DNA of 64,000 nt from Escherichia phage AnnaHegner_Bas87: sequence record PQ850594.1. One strand, given 5' to 3'. Every line of letters starts with the position of its first letter. Within the stretch, counting starts at the first letter, position 1. A model generated the notes under the pieces. It saw nothing but the letters and a program-made list of their open reading frames with translations. It made no database searches and was not told the DNA's origin. Shown here in pieces: positions 37,906-48,966 of this stretch. A program made the translations under genes and the position numbers.

Positions 37906-39753
37906 TTAGTGAGTGTGATTCCAGTTTAACCCAATCTTACAGTCAGATGCCAGAGGGCATTCCATTTTGAGATACTCACCTGCTTTACGAACACACTCTT
38001 CAGTGAGGGTACGAAGTTTGTTAACATCGTCACGATGTACAGTGAACTGGCCTTCATCATGCATGTCAATAACCTTCGCACAACGAACACCATCACGCTC
38101 AATCCATTTATTAAGGAATAGCATTGCATACTTCATAACAATCGCCCCAGCGCTCTGTAAGAGAGTATTTAAGGCTTTATGAACCATAACCTTTCCAGTT
38201 GCATCTCTTCTCATTGTAATACGACGTCCATCCACACCGTAGATGTATCCACTTTGTGCTTTCTCTGTCATACGTTCAATAAGAATTGCAATACAAGGAT
38301 TCTCTGCTAAGAATCTTGCCCTCATGACAGCTCCTTCATCAGAGCCACCGCCTACGATGCTTCCTAACTTAGCGTCACCAGCTCCGTAGTTGAATGCGTA
38401 GATAAATGTTTTAGCATTATCACGAGTAGGAAGGCCAGCAAGTTTTTGGTTATGTGAGTGAATATCTCCTTCTAAAAGAATATCTCTGTACATAACAGCA
38501 GAAGCTAGACCGCGTTCAGCTTCTCGTTTCTTAGCCGGGTTGTTTTCTCGCTCTGCTTCAGCGAGCATCTCACGACACTCTTTAATAAGGTAGTGAGCTA
38601 GCATCCTCAGCTCAAGACCAGAGCCATCGTAACCTAAGAAGATTTCACGACCAGCAGGAACATAGAACTTATAGGCACCTACAGGTTTGTCTTTCTTGCC
38701 CGGTTTTCCCACTTCGTAGATAGTGTTAGTACCCTTTCGTACGTAACACCCATCAGGGATATGGTTGGTAATGGTGAAAGGATGGTTATGACTATCGTCT
38801 GAGGAATAGTCAGATTGAAAAAGACTGCGGCACTCGTGACCAAACAAACCGCGAGAAGGAATATTAACAACAATGCGATGTTTAAAACGAAATGTCGGAG
38901 TAGCGCAGCTATTAGCTTCGGCGGACAACTTACCATCTTTACGTTCCTTGTCGATAAGCCCGCTAATCAAACCTAGCCTGTGAGCCGCTACAACGCGTCT
39001 CTTAAGCAAACTTCCTACACCCCCTAGCTCACCCCCAAGCCCTTCTTCAAGAGTCTCCTCAAGGTTTGTAGGGGCTGTAGGCCACTTGTTTGATGTAGCC
39101 AAAGCTTTTTTGATTTCATCAAAGGTTACAGGCTTCTTCCTATTAGGGTTAAGACCTAAACCGCTGACATAGGCTTTCATATAATTGACAGTGTGATAAC
39201 GGAAGTGCTTATCCAAAAACCTTCGGATATCAGCATCTATCATCTCTGCTGTCTGTTTCTCTTTAGCGTTACCTCGAATCCAAGCAGAATACCATGCAGA
39301 GTATGTACCATACTTCTTCATAGCTTTACGAATTTCAAAAGTATTCCAAGGTTTCTTAGAATAATTCCACTCTGGAGGTATAAAACCTTCATCCATCAAG
39401 GCTTCTTTAATACGTGCATCTTTTGATGGGTCAAAATCTACATACTCAACGCAAGTAAACGCCCCACCGATATCTTCTCTTTTAAGACCAACCCTATCGC
39501 AATAGAGCTGAGGCCACTTCTGTAAAGCACCTGACTTCTTAAAAGGCTTAGCATAAGTTGAACCATCCACCCGCATTTTAGGGAGGAGAGGAATCAGTTC
39601 TTTATCAATATTGACAATAATCTCTTTGAGAAGGTGAACAAACCACCGAGCGTTTCTTCTGTTGAAGTTGACTCCATGCTTCGCTTGTTTTGAGATTATA
39701 TCAGCGACTGTCATCTCCGTTATGAAAGGTAACTTATCAGGGTTATCCATCAC
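37906..39753 (-). CDS. DNA polymerase, family A (polymerase domain)
   Basis: motif A YDGSGLELRMLAH, motif B RDNAKTFIYAFNYGAG, motif C MHDEGQF. Confidence 0.8.
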   Translation of the reverse strand: MMDNPDKLPFITEMTVADIISKQAKHGVNFNRRNARWFVHLLKEIIVNIDKELIPLLPKMRVDGSTYAKPFKKSGALQKWPQLYCDRVGLKREDIGGAFTCVEYVDFDPSKDARIKEALMDEGFIPPEWNYSKKPWNTFEIRKAMKKYGTYSAWYSAWIRGNAKEKQTAEMIDADIRRFLDKHFRYHTVNYMKAYVSGLGLNPNRKKPVTFDEIKKALATSNKWPTAPTNLEETLEEGLGGELGGVGSLLKRRVVAAHRLGLISGLIDKERKDGKLSAEANSCATPTFRFKHRIVVNIPSRGLFGHECRSLFQSDYSSDDSHNHPFTITNHIPDGCYVRKGTNTIYEVGKPGKKDKPVGAYKFYVPAGREIFLGYDGSGLELRMLAHYLIKECREMLAEAERENNPAKKREAERGLASAVMYRDILLEGDIHSHNQKLAGLPTRDNAKTFIYAFNYGAGDAKLGSIVGGGSDEGAVMRARFLAENPCIAILIERMTEKAQSGYIYGVDGRRITMRRDATGKVMVHKALNTLLQSAGAIVMKYAMLFLNKWIERDGVRCAKVIDMHDEGQFTVHRDDVNKLRTLTEECVRKAGEYLKMECPLASDCKIGLNWNHTH

Positions 39754-43074: not shown

Positions 43075-43588
43075 ATAAAGACCCTGTCCACACCCACTCA
43101 GTGATCATGCCCTGAGGCAATACGAATCGAGCTTGCTCTGGAGCGATAAACTTAATCAATTCATCATACGACTCAAGAGCTGTTTCGTATGCCCGATTAA
43201 TCAGAACTAGTGCAGAGTTTTGTGCTCCTGTGGTGAGGAGATTCCCCGCACCTGCATGGAGGTCCGAAGGTCTTTCAAAAATCTCTTTAGGGATGAAGAG
43301 TTCAACTGCTCCATCTTTATACCGCCGGGACATTTCGTTCCATGAGAATCCAACTTGGTGTTTATTGAGTTGTCTAGCAATTGCAATGGGAGCCTTACAC
43401 CGAAAGGTGATTTGAGGGTGTCGAAAAGGAGTCACATGACGTTCCCGAGCTAAGAATTTAATCAACCGCTCGTCACGTTCGTTCAGATCACCATCTCGTG
43501 TCACACCAAAGGAAACCCTTGCTGCATTGACCACAGATTTGTCGGAACCCATGTGCTCTACCAGTGTTGCTTTTAAAAAATCAGACAT
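42938..43588 (-). CDS. thyX: flavin-dependent thymidylate synthase (ThyX)
   Basis: ...TPFRHPQITFR...ARQL.KH....SWNEMSRRY ThyX-like signature. Confidence 0.65.
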   Translation of the reverse strand: MSDFLKATLVEHMGSDKSVVNAARVSFGVTRDGDLNERDERLIKFLARERHVTPFRHPQITFRCKAPIAIARQLNKHQVGFSWNEMSRRYKDGAVELFIPKEIFERPSDLHAGAGNLLTTGAQNSALVLINRAYETALESYDELIKFIAPEQARFVLPQGMITEWVWTGSLFGWSELCRQRLSDHAQYEVRLFASTVDEELRKLFPISWDALREAH

Positions 43589-44048
43589 ACTTCAACTTCT
43601 CCTTGTTGTAAACTTCTTCTGCCTCTTCGCAAGAAGCAAAAGTCCCTAAATGTATATTCTTACCTTTGACGCCAATGATGGCTCGGTATCTATCACCAGA
43701 AGTTGTCTTACGAAGATACACACCCCTAGGAAGATTTCCTATCTTGCTATCAACATCATACTGCTTTCTGTTATGGCAGTTAGTGGATGGATTTACATCT
43801 CTTAGGTTATCAATCGAATCATTAAGTTTGTTCTGGTCGATGTGGTCAATTTCAAACTCAGGAAACTTTCCATGAACAAAGAACCAAGCAAGGCGACAAG
43901 CTCTGTAGCTTTTCCCTTCATACTCAATATAACGATAACCTAGAGAAGATACATATCCAGCTTGATTCCCTTTAACCCTTCGACCTTTTGTGTTCTTCCA
44001 GAAGAAGGCTCCAGTCTTAGGGTTATATTCCAAGTCATCTTGTATCAT
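43581..44048 (-). CDS. HNH-AP2 homing endonuclease
   Basis: N-terminal ...YNPKTGAFFWK...AGYV..LGYRYIEYEGKSYRACRLAWFFVHG...IDHID... plus AP2-like ...DRYRAIIGVKGKNIHLGTFASCEEAE... Confidence 0.65.
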   Translation of the reverse strand: MIQDDLEYNPKTGAFFWKNTKGRRVKGNQAGYVSSLGYRYIEYEGKSYRACRLAWFFVHGKFPEFEIDHIDQNKLNDSIDNLRDVNPSTNCHNRKQYDVDSKIGNLPRGVYLRKTTSGDRYRAIIGVKGKNIHLGTFASCEEAEEVYNKEKLKYV

Positions 44049-44055
44049 CTCTTCC

Positions 44056-44268
44056 TTAATAATAAACTTTTGGTACTACTACAATGAAACCCGCTGCTGT
44101 CATATATGCACGGTGGATTGAAATCTTCGAATCACGACCCATCTTCTTGAGGGCACGTTTAGTGCATCGTGCAGTTTTACGAGTAGCACACGTGTTAACC
44201 CTTGGATACTCCATCTCTGGATATTCAGAAACAACAGCCCAAAAATACACATCTTTTCCTTGAGTCAT
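44056..44268 (-). CDS. small protein, paralog family member 1 of 4 (C-terminal K-V/I-Y/H-Y)
   Basis: 70 aa; shared TR.EAR..K.. and C-terminal PKVYY. Confidence 0.45.
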   Translation of the reverse strand: MTQGKDVYFWAVVSEYPEMEYPRVNTCATRKTARCTKRALKKMGRDSKISIHRAYMTAAGFIVVVPKVYY

Positions 44269-44283
44269 AATAGCACCTATTCT

Positions 44284-44499
44284 TTAATAGTAAATCTTTT
44301 TATAAATCAGGTTGCTTCCACTTTCTGTTTCAATCCCTTTCTGGATTGTAATCTTAGAAGCACCGGTATTAGCAATTTTTAAAGCTCGTTTAAAGCGGCG
44401 AGCCTCTCTCCGTGTTGTGTATGAGGAGAAGCTAGGGATTGTACTATCAAAATTAAACCACTTAACTACCCAAAAAGTAATCCAAGGTTTCTTTTCCAT
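44284..44499 (-). CDS. small protein, paralog family member 2 of 4
   Basis: 71 aa; TRREARRFKRALK ... KKIYY. Confidence 0.45.
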   Translation of the reverse strand: MEKKPWITFWVVKWFNFDSTIPSFSSYTTRREARRFKRALKIANTGASKITIQKGIETESGSNLIYKKIYY

Positions 44500-44500
44500 A

Positions 44501-44776
44501 TTAAATACCTTTCAGAGCTGTATCTAAAAACGCACGGAGGTTTGATTCAGTTTGCATACCGGACAAGCTGTAGTGAGCACCACTGTTCATGTTAGGAACC
44601 ACAAAGGCTGGGATACTGCGAACACCATATTCAATGGCTCGCTCTCGACCATCACCTTCAGAGATATTTACTTCTTCAACTTCTACGTTGTAATCAGCTA
44701 CAACTTTCTTAAACACAGGAGCCATAGCTGCACATGGAGCACAGGAATTACTATAAAACTTAATTACTTTACTCAT
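44501..44776 (-). CDS. thioredoxin-fold (thioredoxin/glutaredoxin-like) protein
   Basis: CAPC active-site-like motif after beta strand (KFYSNSCAPCAAM); likely start MSKVIKF with AAGGAA RBS. Confidence 0.55.
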   Translation of the reverse strand: MSKVIKFYSNSCAPCAAMAPVFKKVVADYNVEVEEVNISEGDGRERAIEYGVRSIPAFVVPNMNSGAHYSLSGMQTESNLRAFLDTALKGI

Positions 44777-44777
44777 T

Positions 44778-44954
44778 TTATTCCTTGTTAATAAACAGAT
44801 TGATATGACGCTGGGTAGCAGGAACAACAATAAAAGATTTATACTGACCTTTTGCTAAGTCATGAGCAATCTTCTTTGTCTGACCAAGACCCATCACACA
44901 GCCACTAACGATAATGGCATGTGCTTGTAATTCTTCAGGTAGGTTTAGTTTCAC
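44778..44954 (-). CDS. unlisted small ORF (58 aa, GTG start)
   Basis: AAGGAA RBS; stop overlaps thioredoxin ATG (TAAAATG). Confidence 0.3.
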   Translation of the reverse strand: MKLNLPEELQAHAIIVSGCVMGLGQTKKIAHDLAKGQYKSFIVVPATQRHINLFINKE

Positions 44955-44966
44955 TCTTTGGATTCC

Positions 44967-45152
44967 TTATAGCATACAAAGAATAATAACAAGAGGTAGT
45001 GTTATAGCAAAATGTACCAGAACAACACTACCTAGCTTGATAGCTTTAACATCCTCTTCTGCTGGGTTTTCTTTAATTGCTAAATTTCGAGCTTTATATA
45101 TAACAGTACCAACTATTAACGACCACACGGCCCACACAATCAGTGAAATCAT
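44967..45152 (-). CDS. small membrane protein (2 TM), tandem paralog
   Basis: shared K.NP...K.IK.GS.ALV.F pattern with next ORF. Confidence 0.45.
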   Translation of the reverse strand: MISLIVWAVWSLIVGTVIYKARNLAIKENPAEEDVKAIKLGSVVLVHFAITLPLVIILCML

Positions 45153-45161
45153 ATCAAACCC

Positions 45162-45383
45162 TTATGCAGTCAACAGGTGGAGAAGGAAAGGAATGACAAC
45201 AGAGAAAACTACCAGAGCAATGCTACCATGTTTAATAGGTTTGGCATCATTTGGATTTTCTTTAAGCATCTGCTTCTGAGCCAGATAAACGATACCACCA
45301 ACAAGGATTGCCCATACAGACCATACGATTGCTGAAAACATACTCATATCCTTATAAAGAAGTTCGCCCCACCTCTTGAACAA
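45162..45383 (-). CDS. small membrane protein (2 TM), tandem paralog
   Basis: see above. Confidence 0.45.
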   Translation of the reverse strand: MFKRWGELLYKDMSMFSAIVWSVWAILVGGIVYLAQKQMLKENPNDAKPIKHGSIALVVFSVVIPFLLHLLTA

Positions 45384-45404
45384 AGAGACAGGGCGGAGGT
45401 TTGA

Positions 45405-45980
45405 TTAGTAAGACACATCACCACTGGAGTGGGACATGTTGCTCTTGACGAAGTAACAGAACTTGCCAAGACCTTCATTAATTTCTTGAAGCATACTCTG
45501 GTCCACTGGATAGGTGCACAAGTCTGAATCAAACTCATCCATCTTCTCAATGATACACATAAGAGTCATGCACATGTCGGAAAGCATACCGTCCATGTCG
45601 AGATCAGCGTTACCTTCTCGGAACCAAGCATGGCCTAAATAATTACTAGCAGTAGCATCCACTTTAACACAATGAAAGCGCATACGCTCTGCTATTCGGT
45701 CGCCTGCCTCACGAGCATAATCTTCTAGTTCATCGAACATACCATGAACACCTTGGAAACCAGCTCCAGAGACGTTCCAGTGGTAGTTCTTTGCTTTGAT
45801 GTGTAGAAGTTCAAGGTTAGCTTGCACACCACACAAGATGTGTTCTAAGCTGTTACCGCTAATCAGTTTATTCATTCCCTCAAGACGAGAGATAGAAGAG
45901 TCAGTAGTAGAGAATGGGTTGCTAGAACCCACTCGTGTTAGTTCTGGTAAGTCGAAGACATTATTATGCATTAGGTGCAT
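45405..45980 (-). CDS. Dps/ferritin-like protein
   Basis: ...KAKNYHWNVSGAGFQGVHGMFDELEDYAREAGDRIAERM... matches Dps ferroxidase region. Confidence 0.6.
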   Translation of the reverse strand: MHLMHNNVFDLPELTRVGSSNPFSTTDSSISRLEGMNKLISGNSLEHILCGVQANLELLHIKAKNYHWNVSGAGFQGVHGMFDELEDYAREAGDRIAERMRFHCVKVDATASNYLGHAWFREGNADLDMDGMLSDMCMTLMCIIEKMDEFDSDLCTYPVDQSMLQEINEGLGKFCYFVKSNMSHSSGDVSY

Positions 45981-46311
45981 CCCCTTCTAAGTTAGTTGAA
46001 TTAGCTACATTACGAGCAATGTTATCCATGACCTGCTGGGTAATAACAATGCAATTCTGTGGGTCTACAGACTTAGAACGCCCCATTTCAGGGTCATAAA
46101 CCTTAACACGCTTGGCTGTTGAGCCAGTAACTTGCAACACTTTGAGAAGATAACCTTGGTTTCCAATAGACCATGCAACAACATCACGATTCTTGATATA
46201 ACGACCAAGCATATCACGATGATAGAACTGCTGCATAACTTTAGCTTTGCTAATCTCTTCAGATGGCGGGGCCACTTTACTCAAATCTAACATAACTCTC
46301 TCCTGTTTCAT
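45964..46311 (-). CDS. hypothetical protein
   Basis: 115-aa ORF. Confidence 0.4.
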   Translation of the reverse strand: MKQERVMLDLSKVAPPSEEISKAKVMQQFYHRDMLGRYIKNRDVVAWSIGNQGYLLKVLQVTGSTAKRVKVYDPEMGRSKSVDPQNCIVITQQVMDNIARNVANSTNLEGDAPNA

Positions 46312-46330
46312 ACAATATTCTTATACTGTA

Positions 46331-46339
46331 TATACATTT
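46331..46339 (-). promoter_or_regulatory. phage promoter-like motif (AAATGTATA, minus strand)
   Basis: ~20 nt upstream of start 46311. Confidence 0.3.
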
Positions 46340-46363
46340 GAGAGTTATCATATCTACTACCAA

Positions 46364-46579
46364 CTAGTAATAAACCTTGCTGGATATGAATCCAGCACTG
46401 TTATGGATATTTTCAATCCAACGATGAATCTCCACCTTTTCAGCGATTCCTAAAGCTTTTGTAGCTTTTATAGTTTTCTTAGCAAGACGAGCCTCTTGTC
46501 TTGTGTTGAATAATTGAATACAATCACCACCAAGAGCTTTGTTAGCCCATTTAGTACGAACTGCCCATAATTTATCCAT
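46364..46579 (-). CDS. small protein, paralog family member 3 of 4
   Basis: 71 aa; TRQEARLAKK ... SKVYY. Confidence 0.45.
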   Translation of the reverse strand: MDKLWAVRTKWANKALGGDCIQLFNTRQEARLAKKTIKATKALGIAEKVEIHRWIENIHNSAGFISSKVYY

Positions 46580-46791
46580 TAGTAATGTACCTTTCCGCTG
46601 ATATAGAAACGACCTGATTTAAAGTCTTGAGCTTTGTGGATAGTGATCTTATTAATTGTGCTTTCACAACTTAACAAGAACTTCTTATGAGCGCGAGCTT
46701 CTTGACGGGTATTCCTAATACCCATTGACTCTGTACCACTGCTCCAGTGAATACGAACTACCCAACGTCTTTTCATTGTTCCAAACTCCAT
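46579..46791 (-). CDS. small protein, paralog family member 4 of 4
   Basis: 70 aa; TRQEARAHKK ... GKVHY. Confidence 0.45.
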   Translation of the reverse strand: MEFGTMKRRWVVRIHWSSGTESMGIRNTRQEARAHKKFLLSCESTINKITIHKAQDFKSGRFYISGKVHY

Positions 46792-46982
46792 TATCTGTCA
46801 ACCAATTTAGGGACAAACTGCATTACACAGACCTGACTACGAGGGAGATTTATTTCACAAGCGGCTCTTCTCGTCTCAATCTTAACGCTAGAATCTGGAC
46901 CAACGTTAGATATAAATACTCCCATAGCAAATGCCCCAACTACAAAACCAATAGCTAAGTAAGTAGCTTTTTCTTCTTTCAT
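46791..46982 (-). CDS. small membrane protein
   Basis: 63 aa with one TM segment. Confidence 0.35.
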   Translation of the reverse strand: MKEEKATYLAIGFVVGAFAMGVFISNVGPDSSVKIETRRAACEINLPRSQVCVMQFVPKLVDR

Positions 46983-46987
46983 CTTGG

Positions 46988-47521
46988 TTATACACCTTTA
47001 GATGCAACTACCCCATTGCTGCCATTGTAACGACCCTTCACTGCATAGGAATCATCACCAGCGTGAGAGTGTTCAAACATAACCATCTGACCAACACGCA
47101 TCCCAGCACGAACTCGTAAGCTGTGGTTGTGGGTAACGTTATGGAATTCAAAGGTCAGCTTACTGCTGTTAAACCCTGCATCAGCCCAACCAGCATGTAA
47201 GTGGTTCAAACCACAACGAGCCATTGAGGAGCGAAGTACAAACAGACTTGAGATGTTATCTGGAAGGTTAAACTCTTCCATTGAGTGCGCTAAGAAGAAT
47301 TGTCCCGGAGTGATGACAATACCATCTTCAGGGATTTTCACCTCTTTCCACTTGAGGTTTTCTTTAGCATCAATGTCAACAATGCCGTCAGCCTGTTCTT
47401 CAACAAGGATAGTATCACCAATACGGATATCCACACTAGCAGCGTTAACATATTTATGCTCCGCATCTAAAAAGCCATTATCAATAACACTGTGTAATTC
47501 TTGAGAACCTAAAAGACTCAT
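46988..47521 (-). CDS. dCTP deaminase / dUTPase-family enzyme
   Basis: ...NAASVDIRIGDTILV... and downstream motifs typical of dCTP deaminase. Confidence 0.6.
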   Translation of the reverse strand: MSLLGSQELHSVIDNGFLDAEHKYVNAASVDIRIGDTILVEEQADGIVDIDAKENLKWKEVKIPEDGIVITPGQFFLAHSMEEFNLPDNISSLFVLRSSMARCGLNHLHAGWADAGFNSSKLTFEFHNVTHNHSLRVRAGMRVGQMVMFEHSHAGDDSYAVKGRYNGSNGVVASKGV

Positions 47522-48966
47522 GAGTTTCTGTTTCCTTGTACAGATGATGCCAAATTGTTAATCATGTTACGAGCTGTTTCACGAGTCAGCGTAACACCTG
47601 CTAAGTTACTATCAAGTTCACCAACTAATTCACGAGCTGTTGCTCGGAGTTCTGCACCAAGTGTAGTGTTAGAATGAGCCAGACCATTACGACGACCGAC
47701 AGGTCGAGGAGTATTGTTAGCATCATTAGCTAAAGATGCAAAACCAATACGAGCAGCTTCACGAGCGGCTATAGCTGCTACCCGATCTTCCGTAGGGGTT
47801 GGCAAATCACCAACTTCTACACGTTCTATATCACTAGAACGTAGACCCTGAACAACAGAGCTAACTGTTTCCCATGAACGACGGGAGCGCTGCAAATCAC
47901 CCATAGATGGAGAAGAAGCAGGTCGAACAGTTACTCCACCTGTATCATGAGTGACGTGCCATGTACGAGTACCCATTCCAGAAGAACGGGCACTACCAAA
48001 ACTACCAGTGAAAGTATCACGAGGTGACTCTGTAGCAGGTGCTGCGAATCTTGTCTGTTGCCAAGAGTCACGTCTGTCAGTTCCCGGAGTCCAAGGCTGC
48101 GTAATTGCTTCAGCACCTATAGTGGTTAATCCGCTAGACCATTCTGTCTGTAGATTAACTTCCTCGTCCAGATAACTACGACCCCTTTCCTGAGGAATGT
48201 TTAATATAGTTTCCATCATCTTCAGGGTATAATGACGACGCTGATTCTGATATAAATTTACACCAGCCATAGGTCCAACTAAATCACTAATCAGGTGAAC
48301 TTCTGGCTCACCGAAAGCTCCCATTGCAAGGTGCATGTATTCAGTAGAACTGCTATAAACTGCAACAGTTGCTTCAGGCCACTTCTTGTGAACATACTTC
48401 ATTTCACGACTAGATACCACAGGAATGTCACGAGTGTATGACATTGCAAACAAACCTTCGTTTGACACATACAGATTACCAAGAGTCATAAACCCTTGAC
48501 AGATCATAGGAAAGCGACGGCTTAAAGTATCCATATCCAAAGGTAGATTAATCATCATCTGGATTTTAACTTGATCAATCTCAATTTCCAGAATCTCTTG
48601 GAAAGTGAAAAGCGCTTCAGCATAGGTTGTCCCGTTAACAGGCTGAATTAGTCGAGATGTAACCTGAAGCCCCTTACTTTCTGTCCAAGATAAGAAGTTG
48701 TCAAGGAATAGTGCAGCATTACCTACGTTAGCAGGGCTGTTTTCTTGACGAGTGTTCCAACGAAGCCCTCCTTGAACTAGGAAGATATCAACATCATTCG
48801 GAGTTCTATTTTGAAAGAACGTATCACGGATAGCACCACCTGCAATAACAGGATAGATGCCATCAGGGACTACGTTATCTCTGATCAAATTACGAATCAG
48901 GTCAAGCCCTACACTGAGGGCTTCTCCTTCTTGAAGGTTCAATTCAGATAGTGGAATCTTAATCAT
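47518..48966 (-). CDS. Pol-beta-superfamily nucleotidyltransferase (CCA-adding/poly(A) polymerase head-like) with low-complexity C-terminal half
   Basis: ...VIAGGAIRDTFFQNRTPNDVDIFL... (GG..RD...DxD); C-terminal ~230 aa rich in R/S/T/G/A. Confidence 0.55.
   Translation of the reverse strand: MIKIPLSELNLQEGEALSVGLDLIRNLIRDNVVPDGIYPVIAGGAIRDTFFQNRTPNDVDIFLVQGGLRWNTRQENSPANVGNAALFLDNFLSWTESKGLQVTSRLIQPVNGTTYAEALFTFQEILEIEIDQVKIQMMINLPLDMDTLSRRFPMICQGFMTLGNLYVSNEGLFAMSYTRDIPVVSSREMKYVHKKWPEATVAVYSSSTEYMHLAMGAFGEPEVHLISDLVGPMAGVNLYQNQRRHYTLKMMETILNIPQERGRSYLDEEVNLQTEWSSGLTTIGAEAITQPWTPGTDRRDSWQQTRFAAPATESPRDTFTGSFGSARSSGMGTRTWHVTHDTGGVTVRPASSPSMGDLQRSRRSWETVSSVVQGLRSSDIERVEVGDLPTPTEDRVAAIAAREAARIGFASLANDANNTPRPVGRRNGLAHSNTTLGAELRATARELVGELDSNLAGVTLTRETARNMINNLASSVQGNRNS

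Follow-up and report, generated by a model that had tools for sequence, protein, structure and literature searches.

The window, a 64,000-nucleotide stretch of Escherichia phage AnnaHegner_Bas87 (sequence record PQ850594.1), comes from a phiEco32-like podophage of the Gordonclarkvirinae, genus Suseptimavirus. A single open reading frame on the minus strand (45405..45980), which contains KNYHWNVSGAGFQGVHGMFDELEDYAREAGDRIAERM, encodes 191 aa when read from the first ATG. It was observed that an AAGGGG Shine-Dalgarno sequence was located 9 nt 5' of the second ATG (45971). Met4 was invariant across the family alignment, and the relatives are annotated from this residue. Because of these three features, the real start is probably Met4 at 45971, and the Dps-family mini-ferritin gene would occupy 45405..45971 on the minus strand and most likely encode a protein of 188 aa, counted from Met4, with the N-terminus MHNNVFDLP.

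A sequence-only reading of this DNA had proposed a Dps/ferritin-like protein with a match to the Dps ferroxidase region and had named an HMM search as a check. The search matched the Pfam family Ferritin (PF00210) with an E-value of 7e-8 and 32.9 bits against a gathering threshold of 24.5 bits, the match of the single sequence covering residues 59-102 only. PHROG 3636 was matched along the full length of the reading frame (E 1e-52). About fifty solved Dps sequences in the PDB were also matched by the single sequence, the best being Dps2 of M. smegmatis at about E 1e-9. We then ran a family profile, consisting of a 24-sequence homologue alignment with 26-83% identity, against the PDB. The profile matched B. 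anthracis Dlp-2 over its full length (residues 4-142 of 146, E 3e-27), and the next matches were the Dps proteins of S. aureus, B. subtilis (MrgA), Listeria and mycobacteria. The Pfam, PHROG and PDB matches were far beyond chance and bore out the proposal; the product of 45405-45980 is almost certainly a genuine and complete Dps-family protein.

This identification was already known, having been annotated since 2008, when the phiEco32 genome paper appeared. The phage Dps had the same sequence as SU7_66 (100% identity) and was 84% identical to phiEco32 gp67, whose record (YP_001671812) reads 'DNA binding protein, member of the Dps family'. The surrounding 3.2 kb were 97.8% identical to Escherichia phages HC-25922 and 101114UKE3. 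In phage SU10, CDS67 (with a Dps domain), CDS65 (thioredoxin) and CDS68 were reported among the few middle genes common to all five C3 phages then known (PMC4281155). The Dps gene is conserved in all long-headed (C3) podophages, and the thioredoxin gene is conserved alongside it. Our literature searches found no experimental or functional study of this phage Dps family.

Many GenBank/RefSeq records (e.g. NC_070982.1 gp069) label the same gene 'integrase'. Ferritin was the only Pfam family found in the reading frame, and no recombinase domain gave a Pfam hit at E-values up to 0.1. All PDB sequence hits below E 0.1 and all top fold hits were Dps proteins, and the label was rejected. It could wrongly mark these lytic phages, which are therapeutic candidates, as temperate.

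The putative gp68-Dps transcription unit

Directly upstream of the Dps gene lies a gp68-family gene (45964..46293, minus strand; phrog_10984), which encodes 109 aa from Met7 and is preceded by an AGGAGAG ribosome-binding site. Its stop overlaps the Dps start by 8 nt (ATGCATAA), so that the two genes are translationally coupled, with Dps as the second cistron. An AATGTA element was found at 46333..46338 on the minus strand, inside CTCAAATGTATATA, about 40 nt 5' of the gp68-like start codon. It was assigned as a P68-type middle promoter element by motif and by conservation with phiEco32, since the 33 nt around AATGTA are nearly identical to the region upstream of phiEco32 gene 68; the SU7 record annotates a promoter at the equivalent place. 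Previous work has reported that the middle and late promoters recognised by gp36, the phage sigma factor, share the consensus AATGTA centred at -11.5, and that the "middle promoter P68" used in assays was activated 3-fold by gp79 (PMC12276001). If the published P68 is taken to lie upstream of gene 68, this conservation suggests that the gp68-Dps unit would be expressed from a gp36-dependent, P68-type middle promoter. A sigma-70 promoter scan of 44000-47600 returned fewer sites than in shuffled controls.

On the other side of the Dps gene, the terminator scan identified a 13-bp GC-rich hairpin (45365..45395, minus strand), 10 nt past the Dps stop, with a folding energy of -18 kcal/mol. Its stem is kept in phiEco32 with a different loop. 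The hairpin is probably a terminator or an RNA-stability element that closes the unit; because the T-run behind it is weak, the terminator function is tentative. In summary, we read P68, gp68, Dps and the hairpin as a putative bicistronic unit of the middle class.

The gp68-family product is basic (pI 9.1) and has an SH3-like (KOW/Tudor/PWWP-like) beta-barrel followed by a C-terminal helix. We found no Pfam family for it, and the precomputed PF23835 tag carried by some homologues was not reproduced. Homologues with 36-38% identity (E 6e-16 and 5e-18) were present in Proteus phage Privateer and Aeromonas phage LAh_8, and in both phages the gp68-like gene stands directly 5' of the Dps gene, overlapping or abutting it. 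By tblastn, gp68 was found in 130 phage records and Dps in 133, with near-identical genus counts; two Synechococcus phages of the Dps set had no gp68-like match. We considered gp68 as an obligate partner of Dps. Despite the near-perfect co-occurrence in cultured phages, this idea was weakened by the metagenomic relatives L008 and L010, in which the gp68-like gene is directly coupled to NrdD and no Dps gene intervenes.

Fold, cysteines and ferroxidase centre

An AlphaFold2 monomer model was built on the 24-sequence family alignment. The model had a mean pLDDT of 86, and nearly all 10-residue blocks of the core were above 90. The predicted helices spanned residues 45-69, 75-102, 111-116 (the BC helix), 129-149 and 158-180. 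A Foldseek search of the model against the PDB returned only Dps proteins as top hits, with target TM-scores mostly of 0.8-0.9 and RMSD values down to 1.2 Å. The model, the Foldseek hits and the profile alignment agreed on the presence of the ferritin-like four-helix bundle and of a short BC helix in the long B-C loop.

The earlier reading had also described a Cys-containing C-terminal extension. This description did not hold: in the Dlp-2 profile alignment and in the model (pLDDT >90), residues 103-180 correspond to the BC, C and D helices of the Dps fold. Because the profile alignment and the predicted helices both cover this region, it is the second half of the fold in diverged form. The actual C-terminal tail spans some 10 residues and lacks Cys. 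The phage protein has six Cys in total, and no CxxC motif was found in it. At the sites of three of the six (C137, C142 and C175), Dlp-2 and other solved Dps proteins have Leu, Ser and Val, and these three Cys are conserved only within the clade that carries an N-terminal extension. A Cys-rich C-terminal extension working with thioredoxin was thus discarded as a candidate, since the region consists of the C and D helices and its Cys residues occupy Leu, Ser and Val positions. The addition to the canonical fold is N-terminal instead. It comprises about 45 aa, is acidic, contains the conserved motifs MHNNxFDLP and SxxRL(E/D)xM, and includes a low-confidence helix (residues 29-41) in the model.

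The residues of the ferroxidase centre were all present, namely H67, H79 and D83, D94 and E98, plus W68 (numbered from the first ATG). In the family alignment (26-83% identity), H67, W68, H79, D94 and E98 were invariant, and D83 was found in 23 of the 24 sequences. In Dlp-2 the corresponding positions are His/His/Glu, Asp and Glu. The sequence-only reading had named missing ferroxidase-centre residues in a proper alignment as the observation that would speak against it; the alignment showed the opposite, with the five phage residues placed on the ligand positions of solved Dps proteins. The centre at the two-fold interface is therefore intact, with H67, H79 and D83 supplied by one subunit and D94 and E98 by its partner.

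The dN/dS ratio against phiEco32 was about 0.05, with dS near saturation. In the same comparison, dN was 0.057 for the Dps core, which is under tight constraint, and 0.33 for the much less constrained N-terminal extension. The Dps gene is under strong purifying selection. Collectively, the intact centre, the complete fold and the purifying selection support, at the level of sequence, a protein that would oxidise iron.

Neighbourhood and proposed role during infection

A short thioredoxin gene was found downstream of Dps at 44501..44776 on the minus strand, about 630 bp beyond the Dps stop and separated from it by three small ORFs. It encodes 91 aa from MSKVIKF, with a CAPC motif and a cis-Pro context of SIP, and matches Pfam Thioredoxin (PF00085) at E 2e-12. 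Against PDB thioredoxins it scored E 2e-8 and aligned to residues 23-104, so that the first ~20 canonical residues have no counterpart. In this alignment CAPC lies over CGPC and 'SIPA' over 'GIPT', and both the CxxC motif and the cis-Pro of a thioredoxin are present. The thioredoxin-fold gene (CAPC) that the earlier reading had placed about 600 bp away was thus confirmed.

The further neighbours of Dps, besides this gene, are those for dCTP deaminase, ThyX, primase/helicase and DNA polymerase. Dps sits in a nucleotide-metabolism and replication neighbourhood, within the middle-gene cluster downstream of P68. The link between Dps and thioredoxin is one of synteny, and adjacency by itself does not show a Dps-thioredoxin redox system. 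The thioredoxin is explained at least as well as a partner of the T7-gp5-like DNA polymerase or of ribonucleotide reduction. The phage DNA polymerase (37906-39753) resembles T7 gp5 (E 6.5e-33), and its comparison with the thioredoxin-binding region of T7 gave a weak partial match to gp5 residues 290-355 (domain E 2.8). The authors of the Privateer study proposed, as a hypothesis, a processivity role for the thioredoxin (PMC7881722). A link to ribonucleotide reduction is plausible because NrdD and NrdG adjoin Dps in relatives.

The gene order in the relatives bears on the role of Dps itself. Across the lineages, a block of primase/helicase, exonuclease, dCTP deaminase, (Trx), gp68-like, (Dps) and NrdD was observed. 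Privateer has the contiguous order Trx, gp68-like, Dps and an NrdD-like fragment; LAh_8 has NrdD, NrdG, gp68-like, Dps and an ATP-cone regulator; and the metagenomic relative L006 has dCTP deaminase, gp68-like, Dps, further ORFs (two Nmad5-domain genes among them) and NrdD. Dps could accordingly be an accessory of deoxynucleotide synthesis, instead of serving in general stress, that joins thioredoxin and the gp68-like product in managing iron and oxygen for ribonucleotide reduction. In the relatives it would supply iron to the oxygen-sensitive NrdD/NrdG or shield them, and in AnnaHegner_Bas87 it would serve host enzymes. The conservation of the block from dCTP deaminase through (Trx), gp68-like and (Dps) to NrdD in Privateer, LAh_8 and L006 is consistent with this idea, although such synteny among relatives may reflect just common descent. 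The coupling of gp68-like to NrdD in L008 and L010 points the same way, and PHROG files the Dps family under nucleotide metabolism. However, AnnaHegner_Bas87 and the kuraviruses (phiEco32) keep Dps, gp68 and thioredoxin without a reductase gene: AnnaHegner_Bas87 has ThyX, dCTP deaminase, a dNMP kinase and thioredoxin, and no ribonucleotide reductase gene was found in it. In addition, we know of no biochemical link between Dps and ribonucleotide reductases. We consider this role rather improbable.

Database labels call the protein 'DNA-binding', and we weighed a nucleoid-type function in which Dps would coat phage DNA against nucleases or restriction, or compact the host chromosome. Some cellular Dps proteins do bind DNA, and in E. 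coli and mycobacterial Dps the binding is mediated by Lys-rich tails; several Dps proteins without such tails (Listeria Dps, Dlp-1/2) lack DNA binding. The phage Dps has a pI of 4.8. Its N-terminal 48 residues hold 3 Lys/Arg versus 5 Asp/Glu, its C-terminal 16 residues hold 1 Lys, and a counterpart of the Lys-rich tails is absent. The co-translated gp68 product is basic and has a fold frequent among nucleic-acid binders, which would be in keeping with DNA contact. The label on Dps comes from the family name. Because the Lys-rich tail is absent, the 'DNA-binding' label is unsupported by the sequence, and a nucleoid-type function is very improbable.

Mass spectrometry of purified SU10 and Privateer virions has identified Dps. 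A purely cytoplasmic role does not predict this observation.

One explanation of these detections is that Dps is a virion component, placed in the long prolate head with the genome or bound to the particle, where it would organise or protect the DNA or travel to the next host. In SU10, Dps was identified with 35.8% coverage and 6 peptides, and thioredoxin and gp68 were detected too (PMC4281155); however, that preparation was not clean, as DNA polymerase, the sigma factor and early enzymes were also in it. The cryo-EM study of SU10 gives gp20-24 as the ejection proteins, which the virion contains and loses upon genome release; gp67, gp65 and gp68 appear in neither the text nor the supplements. 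In Privateer, Dps was detected in virions purified by step and equilibrium CsCl gradients, and this was reported separately from the ten predicted virion-associated proteins verified in the same sample (PMC7881722). An iron-loaded cage of ~250 kDa, with a density near 1.5 g/ml by our own rough estimate, could co-band in CsCl. Co-banding is a plausible artefact, since the estimated density of the loaded cage is near that of the phage.

The two phages with such detections have Dps proteins that are only about 41% identical, and Dps is kept in every C3-morphotype lineage. Nevertheless, it is a middle gene of the replication cluster and not a late structural gene, and a 9-nm cage is too large for the tail channel. 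Outside this family, the ferritin-like gp346 of the unrelated Bacillus phage G was found in particle proteomics (PMC12484599) and is a fold match to our model. In BFVD, Dps-fold domains also occur in uncultured phages as fusions to proteins that are named 'prohead protease'. On balance, a place for Dps in the virion is unlikely.

We favour, with a probability of roughly 0.6, the account in which this protein is the Dps mini-ferritin of a lytic phiEco32-like (Suseptimavirus) podophage, guarding the replication phase from iron and peroxide chemistry. As to its physiological role, a cytoplasmic Dps cage that clears Fe2+ and peroxide during replication is the most likely mechanism, at odds slightly better than even. 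The phage Dps would assemble into a predicted 12-subunit cage within the infected cell, where it would oxidise Fe2+ by H2O2 or O2 and store the Fe3+. This storage would leave less free iron and less Fenton chemistry during the synthesis of phage DNA and dNTPs. Replicating DNA would benefit, as would nucleotide enzymes that depend on iron or radicals, namely phage NrdD/NrdG in the relatives and host enzymes in AnnaHegner_Bas87. The phage Dps itself would probably not bind DNA alone, and a partner, for instance the basic, SH3-like product of gp68, may mediate any DNA contact.

The earlier suggestion that the phage manipulates its iron or redox state, or protects replicating DNA from oxidative damage, can be retained in part. 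The intact ferroxidase centre, the complete fold, the selection and the position in the middle replication cluster argue for it. Protection by direct DNA binding is not supported (pI 4.8, no basic tail), and the thioredoxin link amounts to synteny. Two further points count against a protective cage: the E. coli host has its own Dps, and AnnaHegner_Bas87 itself encodes no ribonucleotide reductase or obvious iron enzyme. Benler et al. proposed, as a hypothesis, an oxidative-stress role for the Dps genes of gut phages, in which the phiEco32-like family was not cited (PMC8008677).

The practical value of these results is modest. Two misleading labels are corrected, and a compact unit of P68, gp68, Dps and hairpin is defined. 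What remains of interest are the conserved Trx/gp68/Dps(/NrdD) block and the repeated detection in virions. It is doubtful that prolate C3 virions carry the Dps cage as a genuine, conserved component, packaged with the genome or bound to it, that thioredoxin, gp68 and Dps form an iron/oxygen module for radical-based nucleotide reduction, or both. If either were true, a mini-ferritin would have a phage-specific job distinct from the bacterial starvation response.

Comparison with known systems

The closest counterparts are phiEco32 gp67, SU7_66, SU10 CDS67 and the Privateer protein QIN94861, which are orthologues. For gp67 and SU7, the gene order and the sequence upstream of gene 68 are the same, and nothing of substance differs. 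The Privateer Dps, at ~41% identity, keeps these ferroxidase residues and also has the gp68-like gene upstream. It belongs to a clade of shorter proteins, with those of Salmonella, Cronobacter and Aeromonas phages, that lacks the ~45-aa N-terminal extension and C137, C142 and C175.

Dps and manganese-catalase genes also occur in the 'Gratiaviridae' gut phages and in Lactobacillus phages (PMC8008677, PMC6669764), and Orf120 of Lactobacillus phage LP65 and phage Semele gave fold matches to our model. These are unrelated lineages whose hosts are strict anaerobes or lactobacilli, and their Dps genes are probably independent acquisitions. Encapsulins with ferritin-like cargo combine an HK97-fold shell with an iron-oxidising protein of the ferritin superfamily. 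The likeness to the phage Dps would be one of analogy only, applying if Dps were indeed carried in the virion; encapsulin membership is not claimed. Virion association, if true, would represent a new use of a mini-ferritin, parallel to ferritin-loaded encapsulins.

A recent capture of host dps was considered and rejected, as E. coli Dps gave a weak single-sequence match (E 0.04-0.09). The nearest genome matches were actinobacterial, with 27-33% identity, in a pattern-based scan that is biased. The sole genome match at 43% was a 568-bp scaffold that looks like phage contamination.

The phage protein shares with cellular Dps proteins (M. smegmatis Dps2, 2z90 and 4m35; B. anthracis Dlp-2, 1jig; Listeria Dps, 1qgh; E. 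coli Dps, 1dps) the four-helix bundle, the BC helix, the His/His/Asp and Asp/Glu ligands, and the Trp. In contrast, its identity to them is just ~22-26%, its N-terminal extension is acidic rather than Lys-rich, and it contains six Cys. Unlike the cellular genes, the phage gene is carried by a lytic phage and would be read from a phage-sigma middle promoter instead of a host stress-response promoter.

Annotation and occurrence of the Dps homologues

Homologues of the Dps gene of the window (45405-45971, minus strand), which codes for the phage mini-ferritin, were found to carry the annotation 'integrase' in many GenBank and RefSeq records, such as NC_070982.1 (45258-45824) and those of IME267, MLP3, ES17, and EcoN5. 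The phages with this label are strictly lytic, and no recombinase domain was detectable in the Dps homologue that bears it. During the screening of candidates for phage therapy, the label could falsely imply a temperate lifestyle.

Dps (43% identity) and gp68-like proteins, related to the SH3-like-barrel protein encoded directly upstream of Dps, both of the type found in C3 phages (the long-headed podophages), were also encoded by short scaffolds of actinobacterial genome assemblies. These were L012 (Herbiconiux daphne scaffold643, 568 bp), P0107 (Kocuria sp., 'UNVERIFIED_CONTAM'), and P0111 (Herbiconiux daphne, partial), which most likely represent phage contamination of the assemblies and not cellular genes. 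In two metagenomic contigs from distant relatives (L008:4001-4294 and L010:4001-4297), no Dps lay between the gp68-like gene and the gene for the anaerobic ribonucleotide reductase NrdD, and these two genes were translationally coupled. In a further metagenomic relative (L006:4001-4745), two genes of the nucleotide-modification-associated family Nmad5 lay between Dps and NrdD.

A Dps-fold domain was fused to a protein named 'prohead protease' in three BFVD entries from uncultured tailed phages (A0A6J7XDU5, A0A6J7WPK9, and A0A6J7WIS1), and ferritin-like gp346 of Bacillus phage G has been reported in particle proteomics (PMC12484599). The fusions and gp346 hint that some phages place Dps-like domains inside capsids.

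DNA polymerase and nucleotidyltransferase

The T7 gp5-like DNA polymerase of the window (37906-39753, minus strand) was without an exonuclease domain, the exonuclease being encoded by a separate gene. Its residues 65-134 weakly matched T7 gp5 residues 290-355, which take in part of the thioredoxin-binding loop. This match is compatible with a role of the phage thioredoxin as a processivity factor. The 482-aa 'nucleotidyltransferase' (47518-48966, minus strand) had a long C-terminal half rich in Arg, Ser, Thr, and Gly, which is probably disordered and is unusual among enzymes of this class.

Small paralogous genes and the HNH endonuclease

Four paralogous, basic ORFs of about 70 aa belonged to phrog_4939, a family of unknown function. 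They formed two tandem pairs (44056-44268 and 44284-44499; 46364-46579 and 46579-46791; all minus strand) flanking the gp68-Dps-Trx region on both sides, and all shared a TR(Q/K/R)EAR..KK motif and ended in KVYY, KIYY, or KVHY. Between ThyX and the thioredoxin region, the window contained an inserted HNH homing-type endonuclease gene (43581-44048, minus strand; Pfam HNH_3, E 5e-10). At this position the endonuclease was missing from the close relative 101114UKE3, in which a single gene is annotated between ThyX and Trx, where the window carries a phrog_4939 pair. The SU7 'baseplate wedge subunit' gene at the equivalent position is probably the same endonuclease. Between Dps and thioredoxin, the window carried two tandem paralogues of phrog_9296 (44967-45152 and 45162-45341, minus strand), small hydrophobic proteins that are probably membrane proteins; one is annotated at this position in phiEco32.
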